Part shown: positions 1,489 through 63,971 of the stretch, in pieces
Position numbering within the stretch: position 1 is the first letter of the stretch
Layout of the letters: every line of letters begins with the position of its first letter
Source: an uncultured Gemmatimonadaceae bacterium
GTDB taxonomy: Bacteria > Gemmatimonadota > Gemmatimonadetes > Gemmatimonadales > Gemmatimonadaceae
Assembly (NCBI GenBank): GCA_963829055.1
Contig: CAWHHI010000012.1
Location: forward strand, 320,001-384,000
Direction: 5' to 3'
DNA length: 64,000 nucleotides
Notes under the pieces: model-generated
The model's input: only the letters and a program-made list of their open reading frames with translations
Told to the model about the DNA's origin: nothing
The model's database searches: none
Program-made: the position numbers and the translations under genes

Positions 1489-1526
1489 AACGTGCCGCCA
1501 ATCAGAGGAATGATTGACGGCACGTT
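1489..1526. promoter_or_regulatory. 16-bp inverted repeat (terminator of etfBA or an operator)
   Basis: aacgtgccgccaatca-gaggaa-tgattgacggcacgtt, one mismatch. Confidence 0.5.
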
Positions 1527-1597
1527 AGGAACATCTTTACACGTCCGGTGTAGTCTCGCGACTTCGCGGCGCTAGCAGCGCGTCAGAACGCCCGGGG

Positions 1598-2587
1598 TCA
1601 GTGCGAAGCTTTTGCGTCCTTCACCGCGGCCGTGAGGGCAGGCACGATCTCCAGCACGTCTCCGACAATGCCGTAGTCCGCGATCTTGAAAATCGGTGCC
1701 TCACGATCCTTGTTGATCGCGACAATGGTTTTCGACGTGCGCATTCCGGCGAGATGCTGAATCGCTCCGGAAATGCCGACGGCGACATACAGATTCGGAC
1801 TCACCTGCCGGCCCGTCTGTCCAATCTGATCGCTGTGCGGACGCCACCCATCGTCGGTGACCGCGCGCGTCGCGCCGACCGCCGCGTTGCCGAACGCCGC
1901 CGCGAGATCCTCGACCAGCTTGAAGTTCTCCGCAGCGCGAAGACCACGTCCACCACTGACGATGATCGGCGCGTCGCCGAGATCGAGCTTCGACGTGTTG
2001 CCCGCGAGCGTCTCGGTGACTTTGACCTTCGACGCCGAAGGATCGCCGCTCGGCGTCGCGGTCTCGACACGTGGCGTTCGCGCTGCGTCGGCAACGGTCA
2101 CCGCACCGGGCCGCATGGAGATGACGGCCGGTGTTGCCGAGAGTGTGACGGTGGCGATCACCTTGCCGGTGTTCACCGGGTGTGTGCCGACGACCTTGTC
2201 GCCGGTGAGCGAGACCGTGATCAGGTCCGACGCCAGCGGCACGCCGAGCTTCGCCGCGACGCGAGGCGCGAGGTCCCTGCCCTGCGCGGACGCCACGAAC
2301 GTCACCGCGCGATAGCCGCCACTCTTCACGCGCTCGGCGATGAATGTCGCCAGCGCTTCGGGATTGTAGTTGGTGAGCGCTGGATGCTCGAGCGCGATCA
2401 CGACGTCAGCCCCTGCACCGCCTAACGCGCCAGCCTTGCCTGCAATCCCCGCGGCGCCAGCAACCACCGCGTGGACTTCCCCGCCGGCGGCGTCGGCGAG
2501 CGCACGCGCCACGCTCACCGCCTCGTAGGCGATTTTCCGGATCTCACCACCGCGCGTTTCCGCGAACGCGAGAACAGAGGTAGCCAT
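1598..2587 (-). CDS. etfA: Electron transfer flavoprotein subunit alpha
   Basis: IVSGGRG, QIGQTG, LYVAVGISGAIQHLAGM and IVAINKD motifs. Confidence 0.97.
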   Translation of the reverse strand: MATSVLAFAETRGGEIRKIAYEAVSVARALADAAGGEVHAVVAGAAGIAGKAGALGGAGADVVIALEHPALTNYNPEALATFIAERVKSGGYRAVTFVASAQGRDLAPRVAAKLGVPLASDLITVSLTGDKVVGTHPVNTGKVIATVTLSATPAVISMRPGAVTVADAARTPRVETATPSGDPSASKVKVTETLAGNTSKLDLGDAPIIVSGGRGLRAAENFKLVEDLAAAFGNAAVGATRAVTDDGWRPHSDQIGQTGRQVSPNLYVAVGISGAIQHLAGMRTSKTIVAINKDREAPIFKIADYGIVGDVLEIVPALTAAVKDAKASH

Positions 2588-3339
2588 CAGAGTACTTTCG
2601 CCTCGGTCTGTAGCAGTCGGACCAGCTCGGGTACCGCGGCGACTCCCTCGCCGATGATCCGCCCAGCGGGCCGCTCAGGAGGTAGCGCCATGGTCGTGAC
2701 GGTCATGCGAACGTCGCCGACCTGTGCGGGCTTCACTTCGAGCGGCTTCTTCTTCGCCGCCATGATGCCCTTGAGCGACGGGTACCGTGGACGGGCGACG
2801 CCTTCGTCGATCGTGACCACGGCCGGCAGTGGGAACTCCAGCATCTCCGCCGCACCTTCGAGCTCGCGACGCGCCGTTCCCTTGCCGCCGGCCACGTCCA
2901 GCTTCGACGCGGCAGCCACGCACGGAAGGTTCAACAACTCCGCCGTCATCGGCCCGACCGCCCCATTCGACGAGTCGATGGACATCTTGCCGAACAGGAT
3001 CAGGTCGTATCCGCCTCCCTGCAACTCGGCCGCGAGCGCTCGGGCGATCGCAAAGTTGTCGAAGGGAATGCTGTCGACCTTCAGGTGAACGGCTCGCGCG
3101 GCGCCCATGCTCAGCGCCTTGCGGAGGGTCTCCTGCGCGGCGTCGGGCCCAAGGCTCAGGACGACGACCTCGCCGGTGCCAAGTTTTTCGGTCATCTGAA
3201 GCGCCGCTTCGACGGCATAGCCGTCGAAGTCGCTGATGTCCCACTTGAGCCCGGTTTCGTCGACGCCGGTGCCGCTCGACGCAATCTTGAAGCGCACGTC
3301 CATTTCGGGCACGCGCTTGATACAGACGGCAATCTTCAC
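2587..3339 (-). CDS. etfB: Electron transfer flavoprotein subunit beta
   Basis: MKIAVCIKRVP, ALSMGA and PRYPSLKGIMAAKKKP motifs; abuts etfA. Confidence 0.97.
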   Translation of the reverse strand: MKIAVCIKRVPEMDVRFKIASSGTGVDETGLKWDISDFDGYAVEAALQMTEKLGTGEVVVLSLGPDAAQETLRKALSMGAARAVHLKVDSIPFDNFAIARALAAELQGGGYDLILFGKMSIDSSNGAVGPMTAELLNLPCVAAASKLDVAGGKGTARRELEGAAEMLEFPLPAVVTIDEGVARPRYPSLKGIMAAKKKPLEVKPAQVGDVRMTVTTMALPPERPAGRIIGEGVAAVPELVRLLQTEAKVL

Positions 3340-3418: not shown

Positions 3419-3785
3419 TCACGGAGCGGTGATGTCCGGCGTGCCGCCGATGCCCGCCACGAGAGACCCGAACGTGTGTGAGCGGGGGCCGGTCGTGTAT
3501 TCCTGGCTGCGCTTGGTGACAGCGTACGCGAAGACCAGCGGCCCCAGGCGAACCCCCGCGGATCCGTGCGATCCGGCCCAGCGAGCTCCGCGATCGGGTC
3601 GCCCAGGGGTGCGACATGTTGATTCCCATGCGCAGGTCCGCGCCGGCCTCAGCGTTCGTGAGCACGTTGCCTAACGAGGCCCGCGCCGACGATCGCGTCG
3701 ATGATCGCACGCCGCGGACGGTGCCCGAGAAGAGCAACCACGCTGCCGTGCATCGACGATGACCGCCAGGTTCAGAAGCCATGCC
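3419..3785 (-). pseudogene. Degenerate remnant of a second LpxR/DUF2219-family gene (C-terminal pieces)
   Basis: Fragments SLGNVLTNAEAGADLRMGINMSHPW and RSQEYTTGPRSHTFGSL align by eye to SLGNILTEGETGFQSRVGVNLSNPW and RSREYGTGPSGHAYSTL of the neighbouring gene. Confidence 0.7.
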
Positions 3786-3851: not shown

Positions 3852-4913
3852 TCAATGAGCGCGCGCAGGAACCTCGTAGCTCACGAACAGTGTGCTATAC
3901 GCGTGTCCTGACGGCCCCGTGCCGTACTCTCGGCTGCGCGTGACCGCGCGCCATTCCGCGACGAGGCCGCGCACGCGCCCGCCAATACCCACGGAGTACT
4001 CGCCAACAAACGGCGTGCGGTCAACCCGTCGCGCGGCGCCGACCGTGTTCCCATCCAGCGTGATGTTGCGCGCGACGGCTTCGACGCGCGCGCCGCCATG
4101 GAGGTAGATCTCGAAGGGCGCGCGGGAACGCCAGCCGCTGGTCCACCACGGATTCGAGAGATTCACGCCGACCCGCGATTGAAAGCCGGTCTCGCCCTCG
4201 GTGAGAATGTTGCCCAGCGACACGCCGATGTGCGGAACGAAGTCGGCAATGGCGTTGCCGGACGCGGTCCGCGCCGTAAAGCGGTGCGTATTTCTCGCCG
4301 TGAGCACGACACCGGGTTCGAAGCCAATCTGAGTGTCCCACCCGACGGGCTCGCGCGAGTACACGCCGGTCAATTTGTGCGCGGTGCGCTGCGCGAACTC
4401 GCCGAACGCCGGCCGCCCGGTGACACCAAGCTCCAGGCCTACGGTGCGGAGCGATCGCTCGGACGCGATGCGCGCCTCCGCGCCGGCGTACAACCATGCG
4501 GCGTACGGGCGTTCGTTCTGCCAGTCGGGGACGACCCCCGGTTCGTGACCCGGCTTCGGCGTGTACATGTCCTGACCGATCGACAGCGCCGTCGTTAGGC
4601 AGCGCATGTCAGGCGTCTCGGCGCCGTCGCACGGTGAGCGGCGCTTCGCGAAGCGCTTGCCCCACCACGGGGCGCCGGCGATCTCGATCACGACCTGATC
4701 GCCGTTCGTGTATTCCTTGTCGGGGCGGTCCGTGATGGAGCGCCAGAAGTTGAACGCGTCGTTGTCCGCACGCACGCTCATGCGCCACGGCCGCTGCACG
4801 CCCGCACGCTGCGTTGGCAACGAGGCGGTGGGCTGCTGCGCGCTGGCCTGGGACGTCGGCGGCGCAAGCAGTGTCGCCACCACCGTCGAAGCCAGCACGC
4901 CAGCGACCTTCAT
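3852..4913 (-). CDS. Lipid A deacylase LpxR family (DUF2219) outer-membrane protein
   Basis: Signal peptide, then DNDAF...DKEYTNG, IGQDMYTP, RPYAAWLY and ARNITLDGN motifs. Start uncertain. Confidence 0.85.
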   Translation of the reverse strand: MKVAGVLASTVVATLLAPPTSQASAQQPTASLPTQRAGVQRPWRMSVRADNDAFNFWRSITDRPDKEYTNGDQVVIEIAGAPWWGKRFAKRRSPCDGAETPDMRCLTTALSIGQDMYTPKPGHEPGVVPDWQNERPYAAWLYAGAEARIASERSLRTVGLELGVTGRPAFGEFAQRTAHKLTGVYSREPVGWDTQIGFEPGVVLTARNTHRFTARTASGNAIADFVPHIGVSLGNILTEGETGFQSRVGVNLSNPWWTSGWRSRAPFEIYLHGGARVEAVARNITLDGNTVGAARRVDRTPFVGEYSVGIGGRVRGLVAEWRAVTRSREYGTGPSGHAYSTLFVSYEVPARAH

Positions 4914-6672: not shown

Positions 6673-7455
6673 TCACTCCTCGCGCGCGGCCTTGAGCGAC
6701 AGGTGCTGCGCCGCCGCGGGGGCGTTCTTCTCGCGCGGCAGATCGCGGCGCGAACGCACCGGTGTAACGGTTCGGCGCGCGGAGGGGGCGACGCCGACTT
6801 CGCGCGCTTTCGCACGGAACACGCGGCCGTGATCGATCGGGTGGCCGGTCTCGTCCTGCCACTGGTGCACCATCTCGTGCAGCAGCGTGTGCAGGGCCTC
6901 CTCCCACCCGTGACGGCGGATGTGTCGGCGACTCACGACGATCTCGGACGGCTCGCCCGAAGCGGACGCCGACATGTAGTGACCGAGTCGCGCGCGCATG
7001 CGGCGGGAGACGCGCACCGTAATGGCCTTGAGCGCGCCATCGAAGTGGCGATCGTTGTACCGGCGATGCCACTGCGTCAGACGCTTCGTGAGCGGCGCGT
7101 CATCGGGGTGCGCCGCGTCTGGCCTCCGAATTCTCGGCGACCGCGCGATGGGATGCGCGAGGATGCGACGCCGCGCGAGTCGCCGTGCCGCCGGCGTGCG
7201 TCCGTTCACGAACATCACGATCGACGCGAGCACCTCGTTCGGCGCCGTGAGGTACCCCTGATGCACGCGCAGCTCGCGCCCGCGATAGCTCACCATGACC
7301 GCGCGATTCCGCGTCAGGCGGCAGCGGTCGATGTCGGTGAGTCCCATCCCCTTGAGCCGCACGAGCAGCTCGGACGCCGTCCGCGGCGCCGTGTCGAACG
7401 CGAGCTGCAGTTGGTCCTGCGACCGTGCAAACAACTTGCCTAACGATCGAAGCAC
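6673..7455 (-). CDS. SprT-family zinc metalloprotease
   Basis: TLLHEMVHQWQ...HGRVF (HExxH) and YNDRHFDG motifs. GTG start at 7455 assumed. Confidence 0.85.
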   Translation of the reverse strand: MLRSLGKLFARSQDQLQLAFDTAPRTASELLVRLKGMGLTDIDRCRLTRNRAVMVSYRGRELRVHQGYLTAPNEVLASIVMFVNGRTPAARRLARRRILAHPIARSPRIRRPDAAHPDDAPLTKRLTQWHRRYNDRHFDGALKAITVRVSRRMRARLGHYMSASASGEPSEIVVSRRHIRRHGWEEALHTLLHEMVHQWQDETGHPIDHGRVFRAKAREVGVAPSARRTVTPVRSRRDLPREKNAPAAAQHLSLKAAREE

Positions 7456-10155: not shown

Positions 10156-12283
<2,128 letters not shown>

Positions 12284-12345: not shown

Positions 12346-14742
12346 ATGCGATTGGTGCTCGATCGGCTCGCGTTCGGAGTGCCGCGTAGCGATCGCCGCG
12401 TGCAGCGCGTTAGGCGCCCAGTCCGCGGCGACCACGACGAGCGCGTTCGACTTCTCCATTCCGAGCATCATGCGCGGCCCCGAGCTCTACGGTCGCGAAC
12501 CGCAGCGCGTCCAGTGGAGCGCCGACAGCCAGTGGATCTACTTCCAGTGGAATCCCGCCGGGCACCGACTGGCGTGAGCCGGCGCACCTGTATCGCGTCC
12601 GTGCCGCCGGCGGCGCCGCTCCCGAGCGCGTGAGCGACGCGCAGGCGGACAGCGTCGGCGCCGCTGCTCGAGACCGGCGATCTCGCACGCGACAGGCGCT
12701 CGCGCGTCGTCTCGTCGCAGGGCGACCTGTACATCGTGTCGCTTCCCACCGGGCACCGTTCGTCGGCTCACGCAAACCGTCGCCGACGAGCGAGACCCAC
12801 ATTTCTCCGCCGACGGCCGTCGCGTCTTCTTCGTCCGCGACAACAACGTGTTCTCGATCGACCTCGATGGCGGGCTCGTTCGACAACTGACCGACGTCCG
12901 CGCCGGCCCTGCCCCGAAGGACTCGGCGAAGGCCACAAGGGCAGCGCGGCACGCTCGAGGCGCAGCAGCGCGAGCTGTTCGACGTCATTCGCGATCGCGT
13001 GCGTCAGGACAGCATTCGCGAGGCTGAAGCAGAAGGCGCGCGAAGCGTTGCGCGTGAAGCCGTTCTATCTCGGCACGAACGAGCGCATCGCGTCGCTGTC
13101 CGTGTCGCCGACGGCGAACGCGCTGCTGCTCGTGACGTCGGTGCAGGCGGACAAGGCCGCGCAGACGCGCGTGCCGAACTACGTCACGACGAGCGGCTAC
13201 ACCGAGGAGCTCACCGTCCGCACGAAGGTCGGCGACGCGCAGAGCGGCGGTCGCGTCGCCTACATGAAGTTGCCGAGCGGCGACCTCACGTGGCTGCAGG
13301 TGGTGCCGTCGGATACGACGCAGACCGCCATCGCAGGCGACGACGTTAGGCTGGACCGACGACGGCAGTGCCGCGCTCATCTTCGCCGAGGCGCGCGACT
13401 ACAAGGTCGCGGTACATCCACAGGCTGGACGCGGCGACGGGCAAGCTGCAGACGCTCGATGTCGCTGCGCGACAGCGCGTGGGTCGGCGGGCCGTGCTAC
13501 GGCTGCGGCGGCTGGTACGACGGCGGCAAGCGCCTCTGGTTCGTATCGGAAGCGGACGGCTACGCGCATCTCTACACAATGGACGCGACGGCGGCGATCG
13601 ACGCCAGCTCACCAGCGGCAAGTGGGAAGTAACGGCTGCCCAGCTCTCGCGCCGACGGACGCTCGTTCGAGATCCACACGAGCGAGGCGTCGCCGTTCGA
13701 GCAGCATTTCTATCGCATGCCGGTGACCGGTGGCGCGCGCGAGCGGCTCACGACGAGAGTCGGCGGCCACAACGTCGATCGTGTCGCCCGACGGGACGAT
13801 GCTCGCCGACGTCTTCTCGACGTCGAACGACCGCCGGAGCTGTTCGTGATGCGGAATCGCGCCGGCGCGATCGCCGACGCAGCTCACGACGTCGCCGTCC
13901 GCCGAGTGGCTCGCGTTCAACTGGATCGTGCCGGAGATCGTGATGGTCCCGGCGTCGGACGGCGTGCAGGTGCCGGCGCGCATCTATCGGCCGAAGGACA
14001 TGGGCGCACAGCCTAACGGCGCCGCCGTGATCTTCGTGCACGGCGCGGGATACCTGCACAACGTGCACAACTATTGGTCGACGTATTCGCGCGAGTACAT
14101 GTTCAACCAGTACCTCGCGTCGAAGGGCTACGTCGTGCTCGACCTCGACTATCGCGGCTCCGCGGGCTACGGCCGCGACTGGCGCACGGCGATCTACCGC
14201 TGGATGGGTGGGCGCGACCTGCAGGACCACGTCGACGGCTCGCGGTATCTGGCAGAAGGAGTTCGGCATCGATCCCGAGCGCATCGGCATCTACGGCGGC
14301 AGCTACGGCGGCTTCATCACGCTGATGGCGCTGTTCACGGAGCCGAAGCACTTCGGCGCCGGCGCCGGCCTGCGCAGCGTCACCGACTGGGCGCACTACA
14401 ACCATCGGTACACGGCGCGCATTCTCAACCAGCCGCAGGACGACACGCTCGCGTATCGCCGCTCGTCGCCGATCTACTTCGCGGAGGGGCTCGAGGATCC
14501 GCTGCTCATGGCGCACGGCATGGTCGACGTGAACGTGCACTTCCAGGACATCGTCCGGCTGACGCAGCGGCTGATCGAGCTCGGCAAGACAGGACTGGGA
14601 GCTCGCGCCGTATCCGGTCGAGGACCACGGCTTCGTGCGGCCGTCGTCGTGGACGGACGAGTATCGACGCATCTTCGAGCTGTTCGAGACGCACCTGGCT
14701 CGCCGTGGGCCTGGCGCTTCCGCGACGGGAGGAGCTCGCTGA
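12346..14742 (+). CDS. S9 family prolyl oligopeptidase / dipeptidyl peptidase (multiple frameshifts)
   Basis: Beta-propeller region, then [25 protein letters not shown] (catalytic Ser), HGMVDVNV (Asp) and EDHGF (His). Stop TGA at 14740-14742; start approximate. Confidence 0.88.
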
Positions 14743-14997
14743 TGCGTGACAGGGGAATAGCGTTAGGCAACCGCGCCGCTTGCTGCGGCGGGCGGAGTCA
14801 CCGAGGCCCTCGGATGGCTGGCCCGACTTCGACGCGTAGCGAACGTCGTGCGGACGATCGTCGGCGCGCCGGACTACGATCGGTACCTGACGCACATGGC
14901 TGCGCATCACCCGGGCTGCGACGTGGTATCGCGCGACGAGTTCATGAAGCAGCGACTCGAGAGCAGATACTCGCGACCTGGCTCGCGCTGCTGCTGA
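14742..14997 (+). CDS. YbdD/YjiX family small protein (CstA-associated)
   Basis: Not in the ORF track. [52 protein letters not shown] overlaps the S9 stop; one apparent frameshift in the N-terminus. Confidence 0.85.
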
Positions 14998-17559: not shown

Positions 17560-17565
17560 CGCGGC

Positions 17566-17835: not shown

Positions 17836-18286
17836 TCACCCCTGCCTGAGCGCGCAGCCCCAGACGAACACGAACGCCGCCAGTACGAAGTGGAAGACGA
17901 TCGGGATGAGCACGCCGCGGCGCTCCGGACGCGCAAGCGCGTAGCGTATCGCCCGTACGACCATGCCGAGCGCGTACACGTAGCTCCCCCAGATCAGCCA
18001 CGCGCCAGCGACCGGCGATCCAACGCCTAACGGGACGAACTGTCCACGTCACCGACGATACGACCATCGTCATGAACACGACGAACGCGATCTGCGTCGG
18101 CAGCAGGTAGCGGTACGGCATGAGCCCGGAATACCACCGGGCCATTGGCGGCAGCCACTGTGGCGCTCTGGTCGCGACAACGATCTGGCCGACCACGCGC
18201 AGCACGAACAGCCCAAGCAGCACACCGAGGACGAGTGCACTGACGCGTGCGGGCAGCGTCAGCACGAGCGGTGGGTTCGGAAGCAC
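17836..18286 (-). CDS. Hypothetical membrane protein (frameshift near 18030)
   Basis: Hydrophobic; WLPPMARWYSGLMPYRYLL, continuing in another frame to LIPIVFHFVLAAFVFVWG*. Confidence 0.65.
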
Positions 18287-41970: not shown

Positions 41971-42390
41971 TTGTCGTGCGGTCGGCCTCTGCGCGTCCGG
42001 GACGCGTCAGTCGCGCTCGTGTTCGTCCTGGCGGCAGGCGCAGCGCGCCTAACGCTGGCACAGACGGTCACCGTCCCCACCGAAAGGCGTGGGTCGGCCG
42101 TGACAGCATCCGGTTCGACGCCATCGCGTAGCGCCGGTCGCCACCGTGCCCGTCGACTCCGCGCGGTGGGTCGACGCCGATAGCGTCATGGATCGCGATC
42201 TACCTGACGGGCTCTATTTCGGCATGAACGCCCGGGGGCTGCGTGACGATCTGGGCATCATGTCGCCCGGCGGTGATGCGGTGTAGGTGCCGCTCCAGCG
42301 CAGACGCAACGAGCTGGTCGTTGCCGTACCCGAGTACTCTGGTGGGTGGGCATTCTGGGCACGGCTGGACGCGGTGAGCCACGACGAATT
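41971..42390 (+). pseudogene. Remnant of an exported protein gene (signal peptide plus C-terminal fragment)
   Basis: Signal-like ALVFVLAAGAARLTLAQ, then LGIMSPGGDAV*VPLQRRRNELVVAVPEYSGGWAFWARLD with a TAG at 42284. Confidence 0.4.
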
Positions 42391-43511: not shown

Positions 43512-43693
43512 TGTCGGGCGACGTGCACCGCCGCCTAACGTGACACGACTGCGCTGGCGCCGCGCGCCGCGCCGGCGCGAGGTGGTCCGCTCGGCGGACG
43601 CTGTCCTGGTACTAGACGGCCCCGTCATCGACCGGTGAAGTTGCGATGTCGCACCGGCGAGGGCGCCGGAGCGCGTCTCCTCGACCAACGACA

Positions 43694-49344: not shown

Positions 49345-49590
49345 TTCGTTGCCCGAATTCGCACGAGGACGCCGCCGCGTCTCAAACACGCCCTGCCAAG
49401 GGCGCGGCGAGAGTCTCGTTAGGTCATTGCTTGGTCGGCTCACAGGCATTCGTCAGCTGGGCGCGGCTCGTCAGGGTGGAGTCGTGGAGGGCGGCCCTGC
49501 GTCAGGCTGAGGCTATGTCGCGCTACAGAAAGTCGCCCTGGTGGTCGCGAATACATGTTGCGAGTAGACACCGAGGGCCCCGCTCCTCCC

Positions 49591-50804: not shown

Positions 50805-52452
50805 GCGCGGAAGTGTCCACAACCAATTGGTATTCTCTAAGCTTCCGGTACAGCGTCCGCTCTCCTATCCCTAACAACTCCGCCGCCTTACGACGATTGC
50901 CGCGCGTCTCTCGCAACGCCGACTCGATGGCCGCGCGCTCGATCTCCGCCATCGTCATCCCCGGCCGAATCGTCACAACGCTCGGAGGGGGCGGCTGGTC
51001 CCGCGGTTCGATGCCCGATGGCGCCAAACGGAGCGCCGGACGACACGTCCGCCGGCCATACCGGGCCGCGCCCAGGACCGAGTGCCGGGGTTTGCGCCGG
51101 GCCGGGCATCGTGCGGTCGATCACTTCGATCGGTGGTCCGAGGACACTACTCGCCGCGCGCGTCAGCTGCTCGCGCGCCATGCGCTCTTCACCGAGTTGC
51201 CGGCGGAGCTCCTCGACCTGGAGCTTGAGCTCGACGAGACTCCGCACGATGAACTCCAACTCCCGCCCCTCGACGCCGGAGCGCTCGCGAACGATCGGCC
51301 CGACATGGACGGGAAGAAATCGTGCCGTCCCGCCCTCACGAATCTGACGCGGGATGTCGGCCGGGCCGATCTCGCGTCCGGGCGCGAGCACCACCATGCT
51401 CTCCACCAGATTGCGCAGCTCGCGCACGTTTCCCGGCCACGCATACTGTACGAGCTTGTCGAGCGCCTCCGGAGAGATGCCCTTGAACGGGCGATCGTGC
51501 TGACGCGACAGCTCGGTGATGAACTGCCTGACGAGTATCGGAATGTCCTCACGCCGTTCGCGCAGCGGCGGGAGATAGATGCTCAGCACGTTCAACCGGT
51601 AGTAGAGGTCAGCGCGAAACCTCCCCTCCTCGATCCCGTCGCGCAGCGGATTGTTCGTCGCCGCGATCGACACGCACATCGACGGGAATGGTCTGCGTGC
51701 CACCGACGCGCGTGATCTCGCGCTCCTCGAGCACGCGCAACAGCTTCACCTGCGTCGCGAGCGGCACGTCGCCGATCTCGTCGAGAAAGATCGTGCCGGT
51801 ATTCGCAAGCTCGAAGCGACCGATGCGTCGCTCGGTCGGCGCCGGTGAACGAGCCCTTCTCGTGTCCGAACAGCTCACTCTCGAGTAGCGTGTCCGGCAG
51901 CGCCCCGACGTTCACGGCGATGAACGGCTTCGACCGTCGTGGACTGAGCCGATGAATCGCTCGCGCAACCAGCTCCTTGCCCGTTCCGCTCTCGCCCTCG
52001 ATGAGCACCGTGCTGGATACCGGCGCGATCTGCTCGACCTTCACGAGCACTTCGCGGATGGCTTCCGACTGTCCGATCAGTCCCGTTAGGCGCGACAGCC
52101 GCCGCCGATCGAGCAGTCGCCGAATCGCGTCGACCACCTCGTCGACCACGATCGGCTTCGGATACACCTCCACGAAACCGATCGCGCGCAGCCGTTCATC
52201 GATCTCGGGATCGCGGACGTCCGCCAGCCCAACGACGGCCACACCTTCCCACAGCATCTCCCGAACGAGCGCGACGTTCTGCGGATCGACGAGCGCTCCA
52301 GTCATGACAATGACGTCGGGCTGCTCACGTCGGATGGCGCCGCGGACGTCGTCGAGTGGAGATACCACCGCGGTCTCCACACCGGATGCCTCGAGTTGGG
52401 CGTTGAGGCGAACCGCAGGTTCGACGTCGGTCAGACTAATCAGGACTTTCAC
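50797..52452 (-). CDS. Sigma54-dependent Fis-family activator with atypical receiver (frameshifts)
   Basis: [45 protein letters not shown]-terminal [21 protein letters not shown]. Confidence 0.92.
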
Positions 52453-52533: not shown

Positions 52534-53016
52534 TCAATGGTCGGTTCGTTCACCCCGGACGATCGCGACCGCGTGATCGACGATGGGCACGAGGGCCGCG
52601 AGCGCGTCGCGCACGCCGCCCGGCGACCCGGGCAGGTTCACGATGAGCGTGCGGTGTCGCGATCCCGCGACTCCACGTGACAGTGCCGCGCGCGGGAATG
52701 CGTCGATGCAGGTCACACGGATGCGCTCGGCGATCCCGTCCGCCTCGCGCTCGAGCACCGCGCGAGTCGCCTCGGGCGTGTTGTCGCGGGCAGATAGTCC
52801 CGTGCCGCCCGTGGTCAATACGAGGTCGGCGCCGTCGCCATCGCACCAGGCGAGCAGCTGCCTAACGATCGCCACCGAATCGTCAGGCACGAGCGCGCGC
52901 CGCTCGATCGCGTAGCCGCGGCCTTCGGCCCAGGACACGATGGCATCTCCCGAACCGTCCGCGCGCTCACCGCGTGCGCCCGCGTCCGAGATGGTCAATA
53001 CGGCGACGCGCACCAC
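52534..53016 (-). CDS. MogA/MoaB family molybdenum cofactor biosynthesis protein
   Basis: LTISD, TTGGTGLSARDNTPEA, NLPGSPGG. Confidence 0.92.
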   Translation of the reverse strand: MVRVAVLTISDAGARGERADGSGDAIVSWAEGRGYAIERRALVPDDSVAIVRQLLAWCDGDGADLVLTTGGTGLSARDNTPEATRAVLEREADGIAERIRVTCIDAFPRAALSRGVAGSRHRTLIVNLPGSPGGVRDALAALVPIVDHAVAIVRGERTDH

Positions 53017-54206: not shown

Positions 54207-55094
54207 ATGGAAGGCAGGAATATGCCGGACTGGCAGCCGACGGCGAAAGGCCGCATCGCGTTTGTGACGCCGCTCGTGTGGCTACTCATGCTGGCAGTCA
54301 GTTCCTCGATATGCAGCGCGCAGTTCGGCGTGCTCGGCGGCAAGACCGCCGGCGCCCAGGTGCTCGTGATCGGAAGTTACCACATGAGCAACCCCGGTCT
54401 CGACGCGGTGAACATCACCGCCGACGACGTACTCGCCCCGAAGCGACAGCGCGAGATCGAGCAGCTCGCGGATCGCATCGCCGCGTTTCGCCCGACGAAG
54501 GTCGCGCTCGAGATCCCGTACGGGCGAGACTCGACGTCCAACATGCTGTACCGACGCTACGTCCAGGGGACGTACGCGCTCGATCACACGGAGATGCAGC
54601 AACTCGGATTTCGCATCGCGAAGGCAGCAGGCTTGCCGCGCATCTACGGCGTCGACTACAACCTCGACGTGAACGTCGCCAGCGTCATGGTGTGGGCGCT
54701 CACGCACGGCCAGGCGGACCTGCCCGCGGCGGTGCAGTCGTTGAGCACGCGACTGCTTGCCGAGGTGGACAGCATGATGAAGCACGCGACCGTGGGTGAG
54801 ATCGTGGCGACGCTCAACTCACCGCGTGCCGACTCCGCGCACGCGATCTACCTCGCCGCCTTACGAGTCGGAGCGGACACGGCCTACGTCGGGGCGAACA
54901 TGACGGCGCGATGGTACGAGCGGAATTTCAGGATCGCGTCGAACGTACTGCGTCTCATCGACGCGCCGACTGATCGGGTGCTGGTGCTCATCGGCGCGGC
55001 ACACGGGCCGATCCTGCGCGAGATTCTGTCGGGCGTACCGGGCGTGCGGATGCTTCCACCGGGCGACGCGCTGCGGGGCGCTCCTGGTCGTTAG
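54207..55094 (+). CDS. DUF5694-like exported protein
   Basis: GGAGG RBS; VIGSYHMSNPG..D, QQLGFRIA, WYERN..I, LIGAAH. Confidence 0.75.
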   Translation: MEGRNMPDWQPTAKGRIAFVTPLVWLLMLAVSSSICSAQFGVLGGKTAGAQVLVIGSYHMSNPGLDAVNITADDVLAPKRQREIEQLADRIAAFRPTKVALEIPYGRDSTSNMLYRRYVQGTYALDHTEMQQLGFRIAKAAGLPRIYGVDYNLDVNVASVMVWALTHGQADLPAAVQSLSTRLLAEVDSMMKHATVGEIVATLNSPRADSAHAIYLAALRVGADTAYVGANMTARWYERNFRIASNVLRLIDAPTDRVLVLIGAAHGPILREILSGVPGVRMLPPGDALRGAPGR

Positions 55095-55125
55095 GCGCCC
55101 CGCGGCGTGAACGCGCGGATCGTGG

Positions 55126-55928: not shown

Positions 55929-57239
55929 ATGACCGTGCTGTTCGTGGGAATGAGTCACGCAACGGCACCTCTCGCCATCATCGAACGCATCGGCTTCACC
56001 GCCGACGACGCGGTTGCGACGCTCGCGCGCATAACGCTTGACGACGTCCAGCCCACACTGCCGTTTCGCGAGCTCGTGGTGCTGTCCACGTGTCATCGCG
56101 TCGAGCTCTATGCCGTGCCCACCGACCATGCCACGCGACAGAGCGCCGCGCTCGACGCACTCGCTCGCGTTCTCACGGAGCGCGCGAGCGCGGGCGACGT
56201 GTCGGATTCGCACCTCCGCCGCCTCGTCGGGCCCGACGCGACGCGCCATCTCTTTCGCGTCGCCGCGGGCCTCGAGTCGATGGTCCTCGGTGAGGCAGAA
56301 GTGCTCGGGCAAGTGTCCGGAGCACTCGCACTCGGCTTGCGGGTCGGCGCGGTCGGCCCGGTGCTGACGCCAGTGTTCGAGGCAGCCGTTCGCACGGGGC
56401 GTCGCGCGCGCGCCGAAACCGCGATCGCGACGGCACCGGCCACCGTCAGCTCCATCGCCGCCGAGTTGGCGGAGGAGCTCGCGGACGAGCTGCGAGGACG
56501 ACGCGCGCTCTTTCTCGGCGCGGGGAAAATCGCCGTGCACACGGCGAAAGCGCTGCGGACACGCGGCTTCTGGGATATGACGATCGCCGCGTCAGCACCG
56601 GCCGACGCTCCCGGACTCGCCGAGCTGGGCGCAACCGTGGTGGCGCCTGACGCGGTAGCGCGCGCAATCGCCGAGAGTGATCTGGTGTTCACGTGTGCGT
56701 CGTCGCCGCCACTCCTGGTGGACGCGGCGATGGTCCGTCGGGCCATGCGTGGTCGGAAGGCGCGTCCGCTCGCGTTCATCGACCTCGCCGCGGGTGACGC
56801 GTTGGATCCTGCGGTGGCCGAGCTCGCGGGCGTACGCGTGGTCGGTCCCGCGGAGCTGCGCGAGCGTATCGACGTGGCCATCGCCGGGCGTCGTCGTGAA
56901 GCGCCGCTTGTCGAGACCGTAGTCGAAGAAGAGCTTCGAGCCCTCCAGGCGCGCACCGAGGGCAGCTCGCTGAGCGGCGTCGTTGCCGCGTTGCGCGCTC
57001 GAGCGGAAGAGATCCGCCAACGAGAACTGGCACGCGCGCTGGCCGCGGTGCCTAACGCCGACCCCGTGGTCCGCACGCAGCTCGAGTGGCTGTCCGTGTC
57101 GCTCGTGAACAAGCTACTGGACGAGCCGACGCGCCGGCTACGCGCTGAAGCCACGCACGGGCACGTGAACCCGTACGCGGACGTCACGCGCGAGCTGTTC
57201 GGGCTCTCGGGCGAGCGCGCCGACCTTCCGCCTGCCTAA
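55929..57239 (+). CDS. hemA: Glutamyl-tRNA reductase
   Basis: GMSHATAP, LSTCHRVELY, HLFRVAAGLESMVLGE..LGQV, LGAG. Confidence 0.85.
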   Translation: MTVLFVGMSHATAPLAIIERIGFTADDAVATLARITLDDVQPTLPFRELVVLSTCHRVELYAVPTDHATRQSAALDALARVLTERASAGDVSDSHLRRLVGPDATRHLFRVAAGLESMVLGEAEVLGQVSGALALGLRVGAVGPVLTPVFEAAVRTGRRARAETAIATAPATVSSIAAELAEELADELRGRRALFLGAGKIAVHTAKALRTRGFWDMTIAASAPADAPGLAELGATVVAPDAVARAIAESDLVFTCASSPPLLVDAAMVRRAMRGRKARPLAFIDLAAGDALDPAVAELAGVRVVGPAELRERIDVAIAGRRREAPLVETVVEEELRALQARTEGSSLSGVVAALRARAEEIRQRELARALAAVPNADPVVRTQLEWLSVSLVNKLLDEPTRRLRAEATHGHVNPYADVTRELFGLSGERADLPPA

Positions 57240-57251
57240 CGCTCATATCCG

Positions 57252-57804: not shown

Positions 57805-58716
57805 CTAGCTCAGGGCCTCGCCGCCGATCAACGCGGCCATGATCGCCTTCTGAATGTGGAGTCGATTCTCGGCCTCGTCCCACACGTAGCTCTGTGGTCC
57901 ATCGATCACGTCGGCAGTGACCTCTTCTCCGCGGTGCGCGGGAAGACAGTGCAGGAAGATCGCGTCGTTTGCCGCGCGCTTCATGAGACGCGCATCGACC
58001 GTGTATCCGGCGAACGCTTTCTCCCGTTCCTTCTGCTCCTCTTCCTGGCCCATTGATGCCCACACGTCGGTGTTGACGACGTGCGCGCCCGCGGCGGCCT
58101 CGTTAGGGTCTCGCACGAGCGTGACGTTCCCCTCGCGTCGCCCGCGCTCGAGAATCTCCGGATTCGGATCGTAGCCTTCCGGGCACGCCAGCGACAGCTC
58201 GAAGCCGAGCCGGTATGCGGCATTGATCCAGGAGTTGGCCATGTTGTTGCCGTCGCCGATCCACGCGACCTTCTTCCCTTCGTAGGAGCCGAGGCGCTGG
58301 CGAATCGTGAGCACGTCGGCGAGCACCTGGCAGGGATGGAGCAAATCGGTGAGGCCATTGATCACCGGCACGCGCGAGTACTGCGCGAGCTGCTCGACGT
58401 CGCTGTGCGCGAACGTGCGGATCATGATCCCGTCCACATAACGCGAGAGCACGCGCGCGGTATCGGGCACCGGTTCTCCGCGGCCAATCTGCACGTCGCG
58501 CGACGACAGGAAGAGCGCGTGCCCACCGAGTTGAAACGTCCCCGCCTCGAACGACACGCGAGTTCGCGTCGACGACTTGAGGAAGATCATGGCCAGCGAT
58601 TTCCCGGCGAGCGGCTTCTTCGTGTACGCGCCGGTGCGCATCGACTCGGCGAGCTCGAACAGCTGGTCGAGCTCGGCGCGCGTGAAATCCGGGATCGCCA
58701 GAAAATGACGAGGCAT
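57805..58716 (-). CDS. argF: Ornithine carbamoyltransferase
   Basis: SSTRTR, HPCQ, TDVWASMG, FLHCLP, EAENR. Confidence 0.97.
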   Translation of the reverse strand: MPRHFLAIPDFTRAELDQLFELAESMRTGAYTKKPLAGKSLAMIFLKSSTRTRVSFEAGTFQLGGHALFLSSRDVQIGRGEPVPDTARVLSRYVDGIMIRTFAHSDVEQLAQYSRVPVINGLTDLLHPCQVLADVLTIRQRLGSYEGKKVAWIGDGNNMANSWINAAYRLGFELSLACPEGYDPNPEILERGRREGNVTLVRDPNEAAAGAHVVNTDVWASMGQEEEQKEREKAFAGYTVDARLMKRAANDAIFLHCLPAHRGEEVTADVIDGPQSYVWDEAENRLHIQKAIMAALIGGEALS

Positions 58717-58828: not shown

Positions 58829-60322
58829 CTACAGAATATACCTGCGAAGATCCTCGTCTTCCATCACCGGCCGCAACCGATCGTTCACGACCGTCCGATC
58901 CACGTTGATCGGCGCCGTGCCGCGATCGGGAAGCTCGTACATCACGTCCTCGAGCAGCGTCGTCATGACGGTGTGCAGCCGCCGCGCCCCAATGTTCTCC
59001 ATGCGGCCATTCACCACCGTGGCGATGCGCGCGATCTCGGCGACGCCATCGGGCGTGAACGTCAGCTTCGCCCCCTCCGCCTCGACGAGCGCGGCGTACT
59101 GCTTCGTCAGCGCGTTCTCCGGCTCGGTCATGATGCGAACGAAGTCCTCTTCCGTCAGCGGCTTGAGCTCGACGCGAATCGGGAAGCGACCCTGCAACTC
59201 GGGAATGAGATCGCTCGGCTTCGATACGTGGAACGCGCCAGCGGCGATGAAGAGCACGTGATCCGTCTTCACCATGCCGTACTTGGTCTGCACGTTCGAG
59301 CCTTCGACGATCGGCAGCAGATCGCGCTGCACGCCTTCGCGCGACACGTCCGGGCCCGCGCCGCCTTCACCACGCGCGCCGGCGATCTTGTCGATCTCGT
59401 CGAGGAAGATGATGCCTAACTTCTCCACGCGCTCCAGCGCATCGGCGTTGACGTCCTCGAGATCGATGAGCTTGTCGAACTCCTGCTCGAGCAGAATGCG
59501 GCGGGCTTCGGCCACCTTCACCGTACGCTTCTTCTTCCGCTTGGGAAGCATGTCCTGAAGCATCTCGGTGAAGTTCTCCATCCCCTCGGGCGCGCCCTGC
59601 GGGACCATCATGTCGAACATCGGCCCCTGCTGCGTCACCTCGACCTCGACCTCGCGCGTCTCGAGCTGTCCGTCGATGAGCAGCTGCTTGAGCTTTTCAC
59701 GGGTGCGCTTGTAGCGATCCATCACCGCATCACGATCGGTCTCGTGCTGTACGGAGCCGTCCGCGCCGACGACGAACACGCCCGGAACCGACGAGGACGA
59801 CGCGTTCGACGTTGCAGCCGCGCTCGCCCCGACCGGCGACGGCGTCGCCGATGACGCTTTCGCCTCGGAAGGAACGGGCAGCAGCAGGTCGAGCAGTCGC
59901 TCGTCGACCTTCTCGTTCGCGAGATCCTCGACGTCGCCTTCGCGCTCGTTGCGCACCATGTCGATGGCGCTCTCGACGAGATCACGTACCATCGCCTCGA
60001 CGTCGCGGCCGACGTATCCGACCTCGGTGAACTTCGACGCTTCGACCTTCACGAACGGGGCACCGGCGAGCTTGGCGAGACGGCGCGCGATCTCCGTCTT
60101 ACCGACACCCGTGGGGCCGATCAGGATGATGTTGTTAGGCGAGATCTCGTCGCGAATGGCATCGGGCGCGCGCTGTCGGCGCCATCGATTGCGAAGCGCG
60201 ATGGCAACCGCCTTCTTCGCGTCGCCCTGACCGACGATGTATCGATCGAGCTCGGCGACGATCTGACGTGGTGTGAGATCAGCGAGGCGGGCGACCACCT
60301 GCTGCGTGCGAGTGCTGGGCAT
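58829..60322 (-). CDS. hslU: ATP-dependent protease ATPase subunit HslU
   Basis: GPTGVGKTEIARR, KFTEVGYVG, FLDEIDKI, ELQGRFP. Confidence 0.97.
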   Translation of the reverse strand: MPSTRTQQVVARLADLTPRQIVAELDRYIVGQGDAKKAVAIALRNRWRRQRAPDAIRDEISPNNIILIGPTGVGKTEIARRLAKLAGAPFVKVEASKFTEVGYVGRDVEAMVRDLVESAIDMVRNEREGDVEDLANEKVDERLLDLLLPVPSEAKASSATPSPVGASAAATSNASSSSVPGVFVVGADGSVQHETDRDAVMDRYKRTREKLKQLLIDGQLETREVEVEVTQQGPMFDMMVPQGAPEGMENFTEMLQDMLPKRKKKRTVKVAEARRILLEQEFDKLIDLEDVNADALERVEKLGIIFLDEIDKIAGARGEGGAGPDVSREGVQRDLLPIVEGSNVQTKYGMVKTDHVLFIAAGAFHVSKPSDLIPELQGRFPIRVELKPLTEEDFVRIMTEPENALTKQYAALVEAEGAKLTFTPDGVAEIARIATVVNGRMENIGARRLHTVMTTLLEDVMYELPDRGTAPINVDRTVVNDRLRPVMEDEDLRRYIL

Positions 60323-61544: not shown

Positions 61545-61581
61545 GCCACCTAACCTTGCAAAAAGGAGGCGAGCCCGGGAA

Positions 61582-62607
61582 TCACGCGCGAGGATGGGCT
61601 TTTCGGTAGACCTGCTTCAGCCGTTCGACGCTGGTGTGCGTGTATATCTGCGTGGTGGAAATAGAGGCATGGCCGAGCAACTCCTGAACCGCCCGCAGAT
61701 CCGCGCCGGCATCGAGCAGATGCGTGGCGAATGTGTGGCGAAGCGAGTGCGTGCTCAAGCCCGCGCTCTCATCGATCTGCGCGAGGAATTTCGTCACGAT
61801 GAGCTGGATGGCGCGCGTGCTGAGACGCCTGCCGTTGACGCTGAGAAAAAACGCGGCGCGATCGACCTTCGCTCCGAGATTGCTCGCCAGTTCATCGCGC
61901 TTCGCTTCGTAGTTGCGGAGCGCGAGTGACGCGTGATCGCCAACCGGAATGATGCGCTGCTTTCGCCCCTTCCCCGTCACCTTCACCTGCTGCGAGACGA
62001 GATCGAGATCGCCGCGGCTCACACCACGCAATTCGGACAACCGCATTCCGGTCGAGTAGAACAGCTCGAGGATCGCGAGATTGCGGACGTCGTTGAATCG
62101 ACCCTCCCAGGCGCGGACCTCCGCCGTCTGGAAGACGAGATCGATCTGCGCACGATCGAGGTAGCTGGGCAGATAACGGTCGATTTTCGGCGAACCCACG
62201 GCACGCGCGGGATTCGCGTCCACGACCTCGTTGCGGTGGAGAAAGCGGTAAAACCCGCGGACCGCGGACAGCGCACGCGCGGTCGATCGCTTCGACAGAC
62301 CGCGCCGCGTTAGGTGCCCGAGGAAACCCCGGATGGCGAGGCGATCCACGCCCTGCCACGACCACTCGCCATCGCCGTAGTACGTCGACAGAAAAAAGAC
62401 GAGCTCCGACAGATCACGCGTGTAGGCCACGATGGTGTTCGGCGACACATCGCGTTCGTTGCGGAGATGGTCCAGGTATTCAGCGACCTCCGGAGAGGCG
62501 ACAACGGGCGTCGGCGGAGCCTCGACCGCTTCGGTCCTGTGCGACGACGGTTGCCGGCGCGACTTCAACCGATCGCCACCAGCGAGAGGCCATTCGCGAC
62601 GCTCCAC
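61582..62607 (-). CDS. xerC: Tyrosine recombinase XerC
   Basis: GMRLSEL, GKGRKQR, HSLRHTFATH, LLGHASISTTQIY; trmFO-xerC-hslVU context. Confidence 0.92.
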   Translation of the reverse strand: MERREWPLAGGDRLKSRRQPSSHRTEAVEAPPTPVVASPEVAEYLDHLRNERDVSPNTIVAYTRDLSELVFFLSTYYGDGEWSWQGVDRLAIRGFLGHLTRRGLSKRSTARALSAVRGFYRFLHRNEVVDANPARAVGSPKIDRYLPSYLDRAQIDLVFQTAEVRAWEGRFNDVRNLAILELFYSTGMRLSELRGVSRGDLDLVSQQVKVTGKGRKQRIIPVGDHASLALRNYEAKRDELASNLGAKVDRAAFFLSVNGRRLSTRAIQLIVTKFLAQIDESAGLSTHSLRHTFATHLLDAGADLRAVQELLGHASISTTQIYTHTSVERLKQVYRKAHPRA

Positions 62608-63971
62608 ACGTCCAACGATCGCAACGCACGCTCAGCGAGCATCTCGCGCTTCCGCCGCTTGTCGCGAATGGGTGGCTCGAGGTCATCGAGCAGGCCGAAG
62701 TTCGCGTTCATCGGCTGGAAGTGCCGCGGGTCCGCCTCGTTCAGATACCGGTACAGCGCGCCAAGCATCGTCGTCGGCGGGGGAATCACAGGCTCCTCGC
62801 CGGCAAGCAACCGGGCGAGGTTGATCCCGGCGAGCAGTCCAGTCGCGGAGCTCTCGGTGTAGCCTTCGACGCCGGTGAGCTGGCCGGCGAACAGCGTCAT
62901 CGGGTCGTCGCGCAGCGAAAGGTGTCGCGTTAGGGCGGCTGCCGCGTTCACGTACGAATTGCGATGTACGGATCCCCAGCGCAGGAATTCCGCCTCGCCG
63001 AGGCCGGGGATCATGCGGAACACGCGCTGCTGTTCCCGCGTGCGCAGTCGGGTCTGAAAGCCGACGAGGTTCCACATGCGGCCACCGCGGTCTTCCATGC
63101 GGAGCTGCGCTATCGCGTAGGCATCGCGACCGGTACGCGGGTCGCGCAGTCCGACCGGCTTCATCGGACCGAACCGCAGCGTCTCGCGGCCGCGCCGCGC
63201 CATCTCCTCGACCGGCATGCATCCCTCGAAGTACGGGATGGGGTCGAACGCCTGGCCCTCGTACTGATCGGCCGAGATGAGTGCGTCGAGGAACGCCTCG
63301 TACTGCTCGCGCGTGAACGGGCAGTTCACGTACGCACCCTCGCCCGCGAGGTCGGGCCCGCCGTCGGACGCGGTGTCGGCGCCGGTCATCGTTTCCTTCC
63401 CATAACGCGACGCGCGAAACACGATCGCTGGGTCGATGGACTCGCCGGCGACGATCGGCGCGATGGCATCGTAGAAGGCCAGCGACTCGACGCCGAGCCG
63501 CGCCTGGATGGTGGCCGACAGCGCGTCGGACGTGAGTGGACCAGTGGCCACGATGCCCGGCGACGGCAGGTCGACGACTTCGTCGTGAACGACGTCGATG
63601 CGCGGATGTGCTCGCACCCAACGGTCGATTGTCCCGGCGAACACATCGCGGTCTACCGCGAGCGCTGACCCGCCCGGGACGCGCGCCTCATCCGCCGCTC
63701 GGAGAATGATCGACCCGAGTGCACGCATCTCGGCCTTGAGCAAGCCGTGCGCGTTGGATGTCTCCGTGCTCTTGAACGTGTTGGAGCACACCAGCTCCGC
63801 CAGAAGCGGAGAGCGGTGAGCTGGCGTCACACGAAGGGGACGCATCTCGTGCAGCACGACCGCGTGCCCACGCTCAGCGAGTTGCCACGCGGCCTCGCTG
63901 CCTGCGAGACCGCCACCCGCGATATGAATCGTTTGCTTCTCGCCCCGTTCTCCGCTCAGCAGACTCGCCAT
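62565..63971 (-). CDS. trmFO: tRNA (uracil-54) methyltransferase TrmFO
   Basis: GGGLAGSEAAWQ, ELVCSN, FGPMKPVGL, AGQLTGVEGY. Confidence 0.97.
   Translation of the reverse strand: MASLLSGERGEKQTIHIAGGGLAGSEAAWQLAERGHAVVLHEMRPLRVTPAHRSPLLAELVCSNTFKSTETSNAHGLLKAEMRALGSIILRAADEARVPGGSALAVDRDVFAGTIDRWVRAHPRIDVVHDEVVDLPSPGIVATGPLTSDALSATIQARLGVESLAFYDAIAPIVAGESIDPAIVFRASRYGKETMTGADTASDGGPDLAGEGAYVNCPFTREQYEAFLDALISADQYEGQAFDPIPYFEGCMPVEEMARRGRETLRFGPMKPVGLRDPRTGRDAYAIAQLRMEDRGGRMWNLVGFQTRLRTREQQRVFRMIPGLGEAEFLRWGSVHRNSYVNAAAALTRHLSLRDDPMTLFAGQLTGVEGYTESSATGLLAGINLARLLAGEEPVIPPPTTMLGALYRYLNEADPRHFQPMNANFGLLDDLEPPIRDKRRKREMLAERALRSLDVWSVANGLSLVAIG

Follow-up and report, generated by a model that had tools for sequence, protein, structure and literature searches.

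A hyper-abundant, non-palindromic 8-mer in a Gemmatimonadaceae genome: a candidate self word of the uptake-sequence kind

An 8-base word in the window and across the genome

The stretch of DNA analysed here (the window) comprises 64,000 nucleotides of an uncultured Gemmatimonadaceae bacterium, positions 320,001 to 384,000 of contig CAWHHI010000012.1 (G000:C12:320001-384000, where G000 denotes the genome), and belongs to an assembly of 7.78 Mb in 20 contigs with 66-67% G+C. Its gene content is of the housekeeping kind, including electron transfer flavoprotein (ETF), acyl-CoA dehydrogenase, ATP synthase subunits, HslUV, hemA, ornithine carbamoyltransferase and a Xer-type recombinase. The whole window is dotted with a short non-palindromic motif, CCTAAC on one strand and GTTAGG on the other, which proved to be the core of an 8-base word, GCCTAACG or, read on the opposite strand, CGTTAGGC. 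This word, its placement and its possible reader are the subject of this report.

A first-pass annotation, made from the letters of the window, had noted about 53 copies of the hexamer and about 44 of the heptamer CCTAACG/CGTTAGG. We counted 54 hexamers (26 on the plus and 28 on the minus strand) and 45 heptamers, and all 17 of the example positions listed in that annotation were found among the mapped hexamer sites. In dinucleotide-preserving shuffles of the window the hexamer occurred 5.95 times on average and 12 times at most, none of 100 shuffles reaching 54, and the heptamer was expected 2.94 times (maximum 9). An alignment of the sites revealed a G before the hexamer in 40 of the 54 copies and a G after it in 45. 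As G dominates both flanks, the true unit is the 8-mer GCCTAACG/CGTTAGGC, of which the window holds 33 full copies (18 plus, 15 minus). The annotated enrichment was thus correct and even understated, while the hexamer or heptamer has to give way to the 8-mer as the unit.

Over the whole genome 5004 copies of the word were found (2457 plus, 2547 minus), which is 38 times the order-1 Markov expectation, and by this ratio GCCTAACG ranks first among all 8-mers of G000. Each of the 20 contigs carries the word at a density of 0.48-0.80 per kb, so that the chromosome-wide character supposed from the window alone applies to the entire assembly; the genome-wide excess is confirmed. Around 5000 sites the flanking positions contain at most 0.13 bit of information each, with a preference for C or T on the upstream side and for C or A on the downstream side. 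Because the copies share almost no flanking sequence, a dispersed repeat of the repetitive extragenic palindrome (REP) or miniature inverted-repeat transposable element (MITE) type was ruled out. Literature searches by the letters of the word, by integrons of Gemmatimonadetes and by uptake terms for Gemmatimonas yielded no description of it, in agreement with the annotator's remark that no such system was known for this lineage.

For the placement of the word in genes a rough codon-usage gene model was used, which covers 78% of the genome and under-calls genes. According to this model 3362 words lie within genes, 412 at gene edges and 1230 between genes. In the called genes the word makes use of every frame that is free of an in-frame stop, its coding-strand readings being xCG-TTA-GGC (1339 words), xxG-CCT-AAC-G (963), xGC-CTA-ACG (621) and xxC-GTT-AGG-C (471), and it provides 204 of 937 TAA and 176 of 1943 TAG stop codons. 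In 3606 confident genes synonymous codons were then shuffled gene by gene, so that neither the encoded protein nor the codon counts of a gene changed (20 shuffles). The 2618 words observed in these genes compare with 108.9 ± 9.3 after shuffling (maximum 130), and the excess thus persists under the very codon-preserving shuffle that the first-pass annotation had named as a possible refutation. Within the confident genes 48% of the TTA codons fall inside the word; TTA makes up 1.6% of the leucine codons, and TTA-GGC encodes 1319 of 12,892 Leu-Gly pairs, CCT-AAC 1065 of 2685 Pro-Asn pairs. The use of every available frame, of rare codons and of stop codons, together with the survival of the codon shuffle, places the responsible force at the level of DNA, as the annotator had supposed.

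In the window six genes had been named whose stop codon is supplied by the motif (hexamers at 7439, 17555, 37748, 39884, 55090 and 57235), and all six hold, three as TAA and three as TAG. The TAA stops are provided by full words at 17554..17561 (+; gene 16294-17559, +), 39883..39890 (+; gene 38902-39888, +) and 57234..57241 (+; gene 55884-57239, +). The TAG stops are provided by the full word at 7438..7445 (+), whose reverse strand terminates a phosphoesterase gene at 7440-8282 (-), by the variant TCCTAACG at 37747..37754 (-; gene 36460-37752, +) and by the full word at 55089..55096 (-; gene 52974-55094, +). Lists of open reading frames (ORFs) are unreliable in this window because its high G+C content yields long antisense shadow ORFs. 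For example, a plus-strand ORF at 6670-7443, which ends in the word at 7438..7445, runs antisense to a Pfam-supported SprT-like gene at 6673-7497 and is probably not real, and the gene called by the codon model at 53046-54161 (-) is a shadow ORF inside the DUF5694 gene 52974-55094 (+).

The remaining full words on the plus strand were mapped to 2420..2427, 3669..3676, 14011..14018, 18025..18032, 18506..18513, 28770..28777, 29176..29183, 35286..35293, 39587..39594, 40234..40241, 42047..42054, 43533..43540, 52860..52867 and 57050..57057, and those on the minus strand to 4593..4600, 11766..11773, 12408..12415, 13344..13351, 14761..14768, 19289..19296, 25675..25682, 27938..27945, 30584..30591, 31296..31303, 33870..33877, 37848..37855, 48407..48414 and 52084..52091. 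The variants with the core CCTAAC are TCCTAACG at 1523..1530 (-), 21994..22001 (-) and 24066..24073 (+); ACCTAACG at 17001..17008 (+), 34213..34220 (+), 49417..49424 (-) and 62308..62315 (-); CCCTAACG at 20163..20170 (-), 44877..44884 (-), 58101..58108 (-) and 62928..62935 (-); GCCTAACT at 24156..24163 (-), 27188..27195 (+) and 59414..59421 (+); GCCTAACA at 26578..26585 (-), 37583..37590 (-) and 38344..38351 (+); CCCTAACA at 50869..50876 (+); and ACCTAACC at 61548..61555 (+). A further copy of GCCTAACA lies in hslU at 60133..60140 (-), where it writes Ser-Pro-Asn-Asn as TCG-CCT-AAC-AAC.

The one-letter variants of GCCTAACG were compared with their expectation over the whole of G000, and most changes of the core were found to be scarce. 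At position 2 all three substitutions occur at 0.2-0.4 times and at position 7 all three at 0.2-0.3 times expectation; at position 3 the values are 0.3 for C to T and 0.6 for C to G, at position 4 0.6-0.7 for T to A or C, and at position 6 0.4 for A to G. Three variants are enriched, namely ACCTAACG (13.4 times), GCCTAACA (10.0 times) and GCATAACG (4.4 times expectation). Judged from these counts, the scarce core variants and the tolerated edges would represent a graded binding preference which drains near-words into the word. In this preference A is tolerated at positions 1 and 8, while positions 2 and 7 are critical. A repair process specific for C to T is unlikely, since at positions 2 and 7 every possible substitution is scarce. 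In a moderately word-rich relative (G010, 605 copies) the one-letter variant GCCAAACG was encountered 24 times in a 100-kb sample, 6.2 times expectation, and may be a second accepted spelling there.

Orientation, spacing and distribution of the word

No polarity of the word was detectable. When the genome was cut into 145 bins of 50 kb, the strand z-score varied between them with a variance of 1.04, hence without overdispersion, and a skew of the type known for FtsK-orienting polar sequences (KOPS) or architecture-imparting sequences (AIMS) was not observed: strand choice correlated with GC skew at a Spearman rho of -0.16 (p = 0.06) and with gene strand at -0.10. Relative to the called genes 1788 words are sense and 1986 antisense. 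The first-pass argument that the absence of strand bias speaks against Chi and KOPS is therefore borne out, and the interference described below, which is equal for both orientations, points the same way.

The spacing of the words is far from random at short range, with 215 spacings below 200 bp compared to 611 expected and an excess of spacings of 500-1500 bp. In order to separate interference from a lack of usable sites, we considered 10,869 permissive sites, i.e. places in confident genes whose amino acids allow the word. The word is actually present at 2603 of them (24%), and in the Pro-Asn frame at 58%. Occupancy depends strongly on the distance to the nearest other word. It amounts to 3.6-4.3% at 0-100 bp (3.6% within 50 bp), 12% at 100-200 bp, 20% at 200-300 bp and 30-33% at 500-1500 bp (33% at 750-1500 bp), so that a second word is suppressed about eightfold within 100 bp of a neighbour and the effect reaches about 300-500 bp. 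In all four classes of neighbour (same or opposite orientation, on either side) the occupancy was 0.09-0.13, as compared to 0.30 for sites without a neighbour within 500 bp. This orientation-blind, symmetric short-range interference between words is new here. Since the suppression is symmetric and short-range, one word evidently serves a few hundred bases in either orientation, and the interference fits an orientation-blind, regional and saturating reader for which a single word in each DNA fragment or domain is enough. Polar readers are disfavoured, because the two orientations of Chi or KOPS do different jobs and should not substitute for each other, and a mutation or repair bias acting autonomously at each site is disfavoured because occupancy depends on neighbouring words. 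The field is thereby narrowed to an uptake or transfer tag and a network of binding sites inside the cell.

Opposite-strand word pairs within 60 bp number 13 in the whole genome. One perfect hairpin, whose arms begin and end with the word (G000:C18:97494-97548), resembles a terminator that an inverted pair of words has formed.

The word is conserved at orthologous positions. Genes of the window share 74-87% DNA identity with those of five other genomes of the genus, and in 16 of 25 comparisons of one site with one genome the word was retained at the corresponding position, compared to 16-21% for all 8-mers of the same alignments; this sample is small and the compared kin are not independent of one another. 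Four of the nine orthologous word changes led to the tolerated variant ACCTAACG. The presence of the word at orthologous positions in five other assemblies also excludes a basecalling or assembly artefact, which had been raised as a possible objection. In hslU three word-rich genomes of two genera write Ser-Pro-Asn-Asn as TCG-CCT-AAC-AAC, and one Leu-Gly is TTA-GGC in two word-rich genera, whereas word-poor genomes encode the same residues with CCG, CCC or CCA for proline and CTG or CTC for leucine.

Among 30 relatives all six other genomes of the genus contain the word in 2501-5112 copies, and a genome of another genus (G014) is the densest, with 6360 copies in 5.1 Mb. Most of the remaining relatives have 6-65 copies, fewer than of a reversed-word control. 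In 300 further genomes sampled from the phylum the word-rich ones were confined to this order. Within family f1 the copy numbers were 4469 (G300), 3896 (G236), 4141 (G293), 1100 (G160), 815 (G189), 855 (G288), 709 (G115), 465 (G294) and 452 (G125); in family f2 genus g70 reached up to 1061 copies, and none of the 103 genomes of families f4-f12 exceeded 70. Altogether, family f1 comprises roughly 15 word-rich genomes, counting G000, and 55 word-poor ones. These tallies include four unpublished genomes (G013, G079, G118 and G199), on which no conclusion depends.

Word richness is clearly patchy within one order and even within one genus, as G289 has 66 copies compared to 3896 in G236 and 4141 in G293 of the same genus. 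A comparison of word gain and loss for G289 comprised only 2 aligned word sites. On a single-gene tree of HslU from 21 genomes the word-rich label requires 6 changes, at least two of which are forced by well-supported branches; 157 of 500 label shuffles do as well, and one gene cannot fix the history. On the same tree G289 is sister to G293 plus G236 with a support of 93/94. The patchy distribution suggests that the reader was gained and lost. G289 versus G236 and G293 forms the sharpest natural contrast for finding the reader gene, and with approximately 15 word-rich and 55 word-poor genomes in one family the reader comes within reach of phylogenetic profiling.

Samples of G014 (175 kb) and of the word-rich genome G004 (113 kb) displayed the same 8-mer as G000 with the same soft edges, and no other hyper-abundant 8-mer was found in samples of 19-60 kb from five word-poor genera (G008, G009, G012, G016 and G018). 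Given that the sampled word-rich genera share one 8-mer and the word-poor ones show none, the word has no dialects.

The word as the core of integron attC sites

An attC site, the recombination site of integron cassettes, is an imperfect palindrome of 57-141 bp with two boxes that face each other. PMC3053210 defines attC sites by an inverse core RYYYAAC and a core GTTRRRY, the latter also marking the cassette boundaries. The word includes GTTAGGC, which matches GTTRRRY, and attC sites of both G000 and related genomes in fact have it as their R' core. Where a relative is word-poor, its few copies are clustered on one strand at intervals of about 550 bp, and these clusters are integron cassette arrays. 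Large chromosomal arrays were located at G021:C95:1-24000 (L001, L002), on G019:C3 (L003) and on G021:C80 and C43 (L004, L005). Of nine sites shown from the arrays of G021 and G019 eight fold so that the R' box CGTTAGGC lies opposite an R'' box which reads GCCTAAC or GTCTAAC and continues with A. The 24-kb run contains 26 attC sites of about 90 nt, each with the word at its end; at a distance of 18 kb beyond it, the same contig carries a ComEC gene. Metagenomic arrays on the viral contigs L141, L174 and L199 carry the same attC ends.

The integron of G000 itself spans C20:192696-209104. Its integrase gene (C20:208008-208985) is divergent, scoring 265.7 bits against a cut-off of 265, and its closest named relatives, 42-44% identical, come from metagenome-assembled genomes (MAGs), one of an unclassified bacterium and the others of myxobacteria. 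The cassettes contain small genes (DUF4440, DUF1801, DUF1990 and a BrnT-like piece) that share the strand of the integrase gene, corresponding to an 'inverted' layout. Three of ten candidate attC sites (192696, 205101 and 207188) possess an R'' box upstream of R' CGTTAGGC, spelled ACCTAACG twice and GGCTAACG once, and two of these three pair in the computed fold. ACCTAACG and GCCTAACA, the most enriched variants genome-wide, are R'' spellings of these attC sites. A 143-aa ORF at G000:C4:2850-3281 matches Phage_int_SAM_4 (101.5 bits) with the N-terminal domain only and has no catalytic domain nearby; it is probably the remnant of a second integron. As a possible binder of the word this stand-alone intI fragment was rejected, as it looks like a pseudogene remnant.

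The words scattered through the genome lack the hairpin that characterizes attC sites. Within 300 bp of oriented words the frequency of GTTRRRY did not rise, staying at 30-82 per 20-nt bin throughout, and because no partner box is enriched the genomic words cannot fold as attC sites. By our own arithmetic about 0.4% of arbitrary 8-mers would contain GTTRRRY on either strand, the match having been noticed post hoc, and the identity of the word with the attC core is probably meaningful.

A very AT-rich viral contig from IMG/VR (G+C content 0.30) contains a tandem array, repeating about every 108 bp (L189:5562-6497), the G+C-rich unit ends of which contain CGTTAGGC; these units do not fold like an attC site.

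A proposed self tag and its alternatives

In every sequence-level respect that we compared, except for dialects, the word resembles the uptake words of Haemophilus and Neisseria. Like the uptake signal sequences (USS) of Pasteurellaceae and the DNA uptake sequences (DUS) of Neisseriaceae it is short and non-palindromic, occurs in thousands of copies equally on both strands, mostly in genes, in several frames and against codon habits, and is evenly spaced, poor in forms with a single mismatch and lineage-restricted. According to PMC1939737, the uptake sequences of Haemophilus and Neisseria are evenly spaced and located inside genes, and forms of them with a single mismatch are scarce; PMC3630211 and PMC2817400 deal with uptake sequences as well. 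The differences are that USS and DUS have dialects, while here the same 8-mer or nothing is found, that the word belongs to another phylum, is patchy within a genus and coincides with an attC core. With some hesitation, and at somewhat less than even confidence, we therefore favour GCCTAACG/CGTTAGGC as a candidate genome-wide self word of the DNA-uptake-sequence kind.

According to this reading a predicted protein would recognize the 8-mer as double-stranded DNA, whichever way it points, within a segment of a few hundred bases. Word-bearing DNA would be favoured, most likely when the type IV pilus and ComEC take up DNA from outside and homologous replacement follows, and alleles that gain a word would spread by molecular drive wherever the protein sequence tolerates them, until one word per about 0.5-1 kb saturates the system. 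The favoured step would accordingly be uptake or transfer, for which a specific receptor presumably exists, and the identity of word and attC core might reflect either a seeding of the specificity by attC sites or a real preference for cassette DNA. The genes for pilus and ComEC are present: ComEC was found in all 31 relatives, word-rich and word-poor, G000 included, and PilM in 29 of the 31 (G000 included) and in five of five further genomes regardless of the word. In Neisseria the DUS receptor is a minor pilin. Eight pilin-like motifs were detected in G000, one of them belonging to an orphan pilin with clear orthologues only inside the genus.

Experimentally established uptake words are, to our knowledge, restricted to two bacterial families, and HIP1 of cyanobacteria is under discussion as a third case. 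If confirmed, the word would add a fourth case of an uptake word, in a little-studied soil phylum and with up to about one word per 0.8 kb, and would extend the notion of a watermark that bacteria place in their own DNA. Transforming DNA supplied with the word would then offer a handle for the genetic tractability of these bacteria, and natural transformation might be linked to cassette capture.

Several observations weigh against an uptake tag. ComEC and PilM do not explain who has the word, because they are equally present in word-poor relatives. Matches to ComEA-type proteins were weak, with none in G000 at E <= 1e-5, G000 being 86% complete and profile misses in incomplete genomes being no proof of absence. 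The pilMNOPQ and minor-pilin cluster looks alike in six word-rich and three word-poor genomes, with G000 among those compared, as judged from crude ORF calls, without any gene specific for the word-rich ones, and a word-specific pilin as receptor did not emerge from the comparison of motifs, orthologues and clusters. No report of competence in the lineage was found in the literature searched. There are no dialects between genera, unlike in Neisseriaceae, and the identity with the integron attC core is not predicted by an uptake model. Furthermore, 80 viral-contig loci, selected for two words 300-329 bp apart, were read, and the richest of them (L169) is a phage fragment with large terminase, portal, holin and a repressor-like regulator. 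It carries 19 words in 15.2 kb (13 plus, 6 minus), which is a host-like density, compared to 2 reversed control words. A pure uptake drive explains these words only for a long-resident temperate phage, and they are easier to understand with a reader inside the cell or long prophage residence than with uptake alone.

Two further candidates were examined and rejected. Packaging by a gene-transfer agent or prophage found no counterpart, as no HK97-type capsid or portal match was obtained in G000, and local word clusters near a possible reader gene revealed nothing remarkable in this genome.

The first-pass interpretation, a recognition site for a nucleoid protein, DNA uptake or modification-coupled repair, holds in part; it had missed the 8-mer unit, the identity with the attC core and the restriction to some genera of one order. 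As for its first option, the words could form the binding-site network of an orientation-blind chromosome protein inside the cell, nucleoid-associated or domain-organizing, with selection keeping about one site per 0.5-1 kb. Non-polarity, regular spacing with symmetric short-range exclusion and conservation at orthologous sites would suit such a protein, as would the density in L169, since a phage must live inside the cell, and the use of one word without dialects in all word-rich genera. On the other hand, related genera and G289 do without the word, which would be odd for a core chromosome function, and no candidate protein emerged; moreover, no nucleoid protein is known to us whose function requires an exact 8-mer in thousands of copies, at the expense of codon usage. 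We consider such a network unlikely, while granting it a real chance.

Another hyper-abundant octamer, the highly iterated palindrome HIP1 of cyanobacteria (GCGATCGC), is likewise conserved and quasi-periodic in its distribution and is now proposed as an uptake tag, according to PMC13756078. A methylation-linked tag of this type, in which a methyltransferase marks the word and the marked word helps incoming DNA to survive or enter, would agree with the patchy distribution, as expected for an accessory methyltransferase. HIP1, however, is a palindrome with known methylases and phylum-level conservation, whereas GCCTAACG is asymmetric and confined to some genera of one order. In addition, Vsr was found in none of six word-rich genomes searched, and in the HIP1 study itself the methylases failed a correlation test (PMC13756078). 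A tag of this kind seems distinctly unlikely to us.

The attC identity permits a different view, in which the uptake or transfer machinery is tuned to the attC core and the genome has been filled with the word as a by-product of a competence that harvests integron cassettes. Free DNA with cassettes of any integron that has a GTTAGGC-type end would be taken up preferentially, and its incoming single strands would offer attC hairpins, the natural substrate, to the integrase. This would, if true, explain the same word without dialects in separate genera; we regard it as a long shot.

Even less probable, in our estimate, is that the integron integrase or a derivative of it reads the word, isolated R-box words serving as secondary recombination, docking or decoy sites. 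It is true that the word is the R' end of attC in G000, G021, G019, L141, L174 and L199, and that the top enriched variants ACCTAACG and GCCTAACA are R'' spellings. At the genomic words, however, no inverted partner is enriched within 300 bp, so that they cannot fold as attC, close word pairs are depleted, and recombination at thousands of sites inside genes would be harmful. Furthermore, a search for IntI at E <= 1e-30 recovered it from 15 of 20 word-poor relatives as well as from 6 of 8 word-rich genomes; among the latter, G002 and G004 gave no match, and in G014 nothing but broken pieces turned up. As its presence does not track word richness, the integrase was rejected as the discriminating reader.

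A Chi-like signal that halts a helicase-nuclease on self DNA would account for a self-marking 8-mer that is missing from three long stretches (see below) and present in a phage fragment, and Chi, KOPS and AIMS octamers are also lineage-specific, over-represented 8-mers which mark their own chromosome. Those, however, are polar to replication, whereas the word is non-polar with interchangeable orientations, opposite and same orientations interfering equally. RecC was not found in any of the 31 relatives, including all seven genomes of the genus and G014, and occurred in one of five word-rich and one of five word-poor genomes of two other sets; alpha-type AddB was found in none of eight word-rich genomes, a search that did not extend to AdnAB or to the AddB model of Gram-positive bacteria. 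Besides, the 38-fold excess is larger than any known to us for a Chi. A Chi-like role is largely refuted by the symmetry of the interference and appears highly improbable. Least credible of all, and largely excluded, is a mutational or mismatch-repair bias of the very-short-patch kind that converts near-words site by site, and modification-coupled repair of this kind, as in the first-pass proposal, is likewise disfavoured: the core near-words at 0.2-0.7 times expectation would fit, but every substitution at positions 2 and 7 is depleted, beyond C to T, occupancy depends on neighbours up to about 300-500 bp away, and Vsr was not found in the six word-rich genomes mentioned above.

Three stretches of 31-50 kb at contig ends are free of the word (G000:C6:5440-55037, G000:C6:591808-623330 and G000:C11:1-46789). 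Two of them have a G+C content of 0.70 and 0.73, the third of 0.66, near the genome mean. They carry housekeeping genes (chorismate synthase in two pieces, FtsK, DAHP synthase, glutamine synthetase, FolD, IlvD and GreA), of which several are split or partial. These stretches look like chimeric joins or contaminant DNA rather than islands, and the word may thus serve as a cheap purity check for assembled genomes of word-rich genera.

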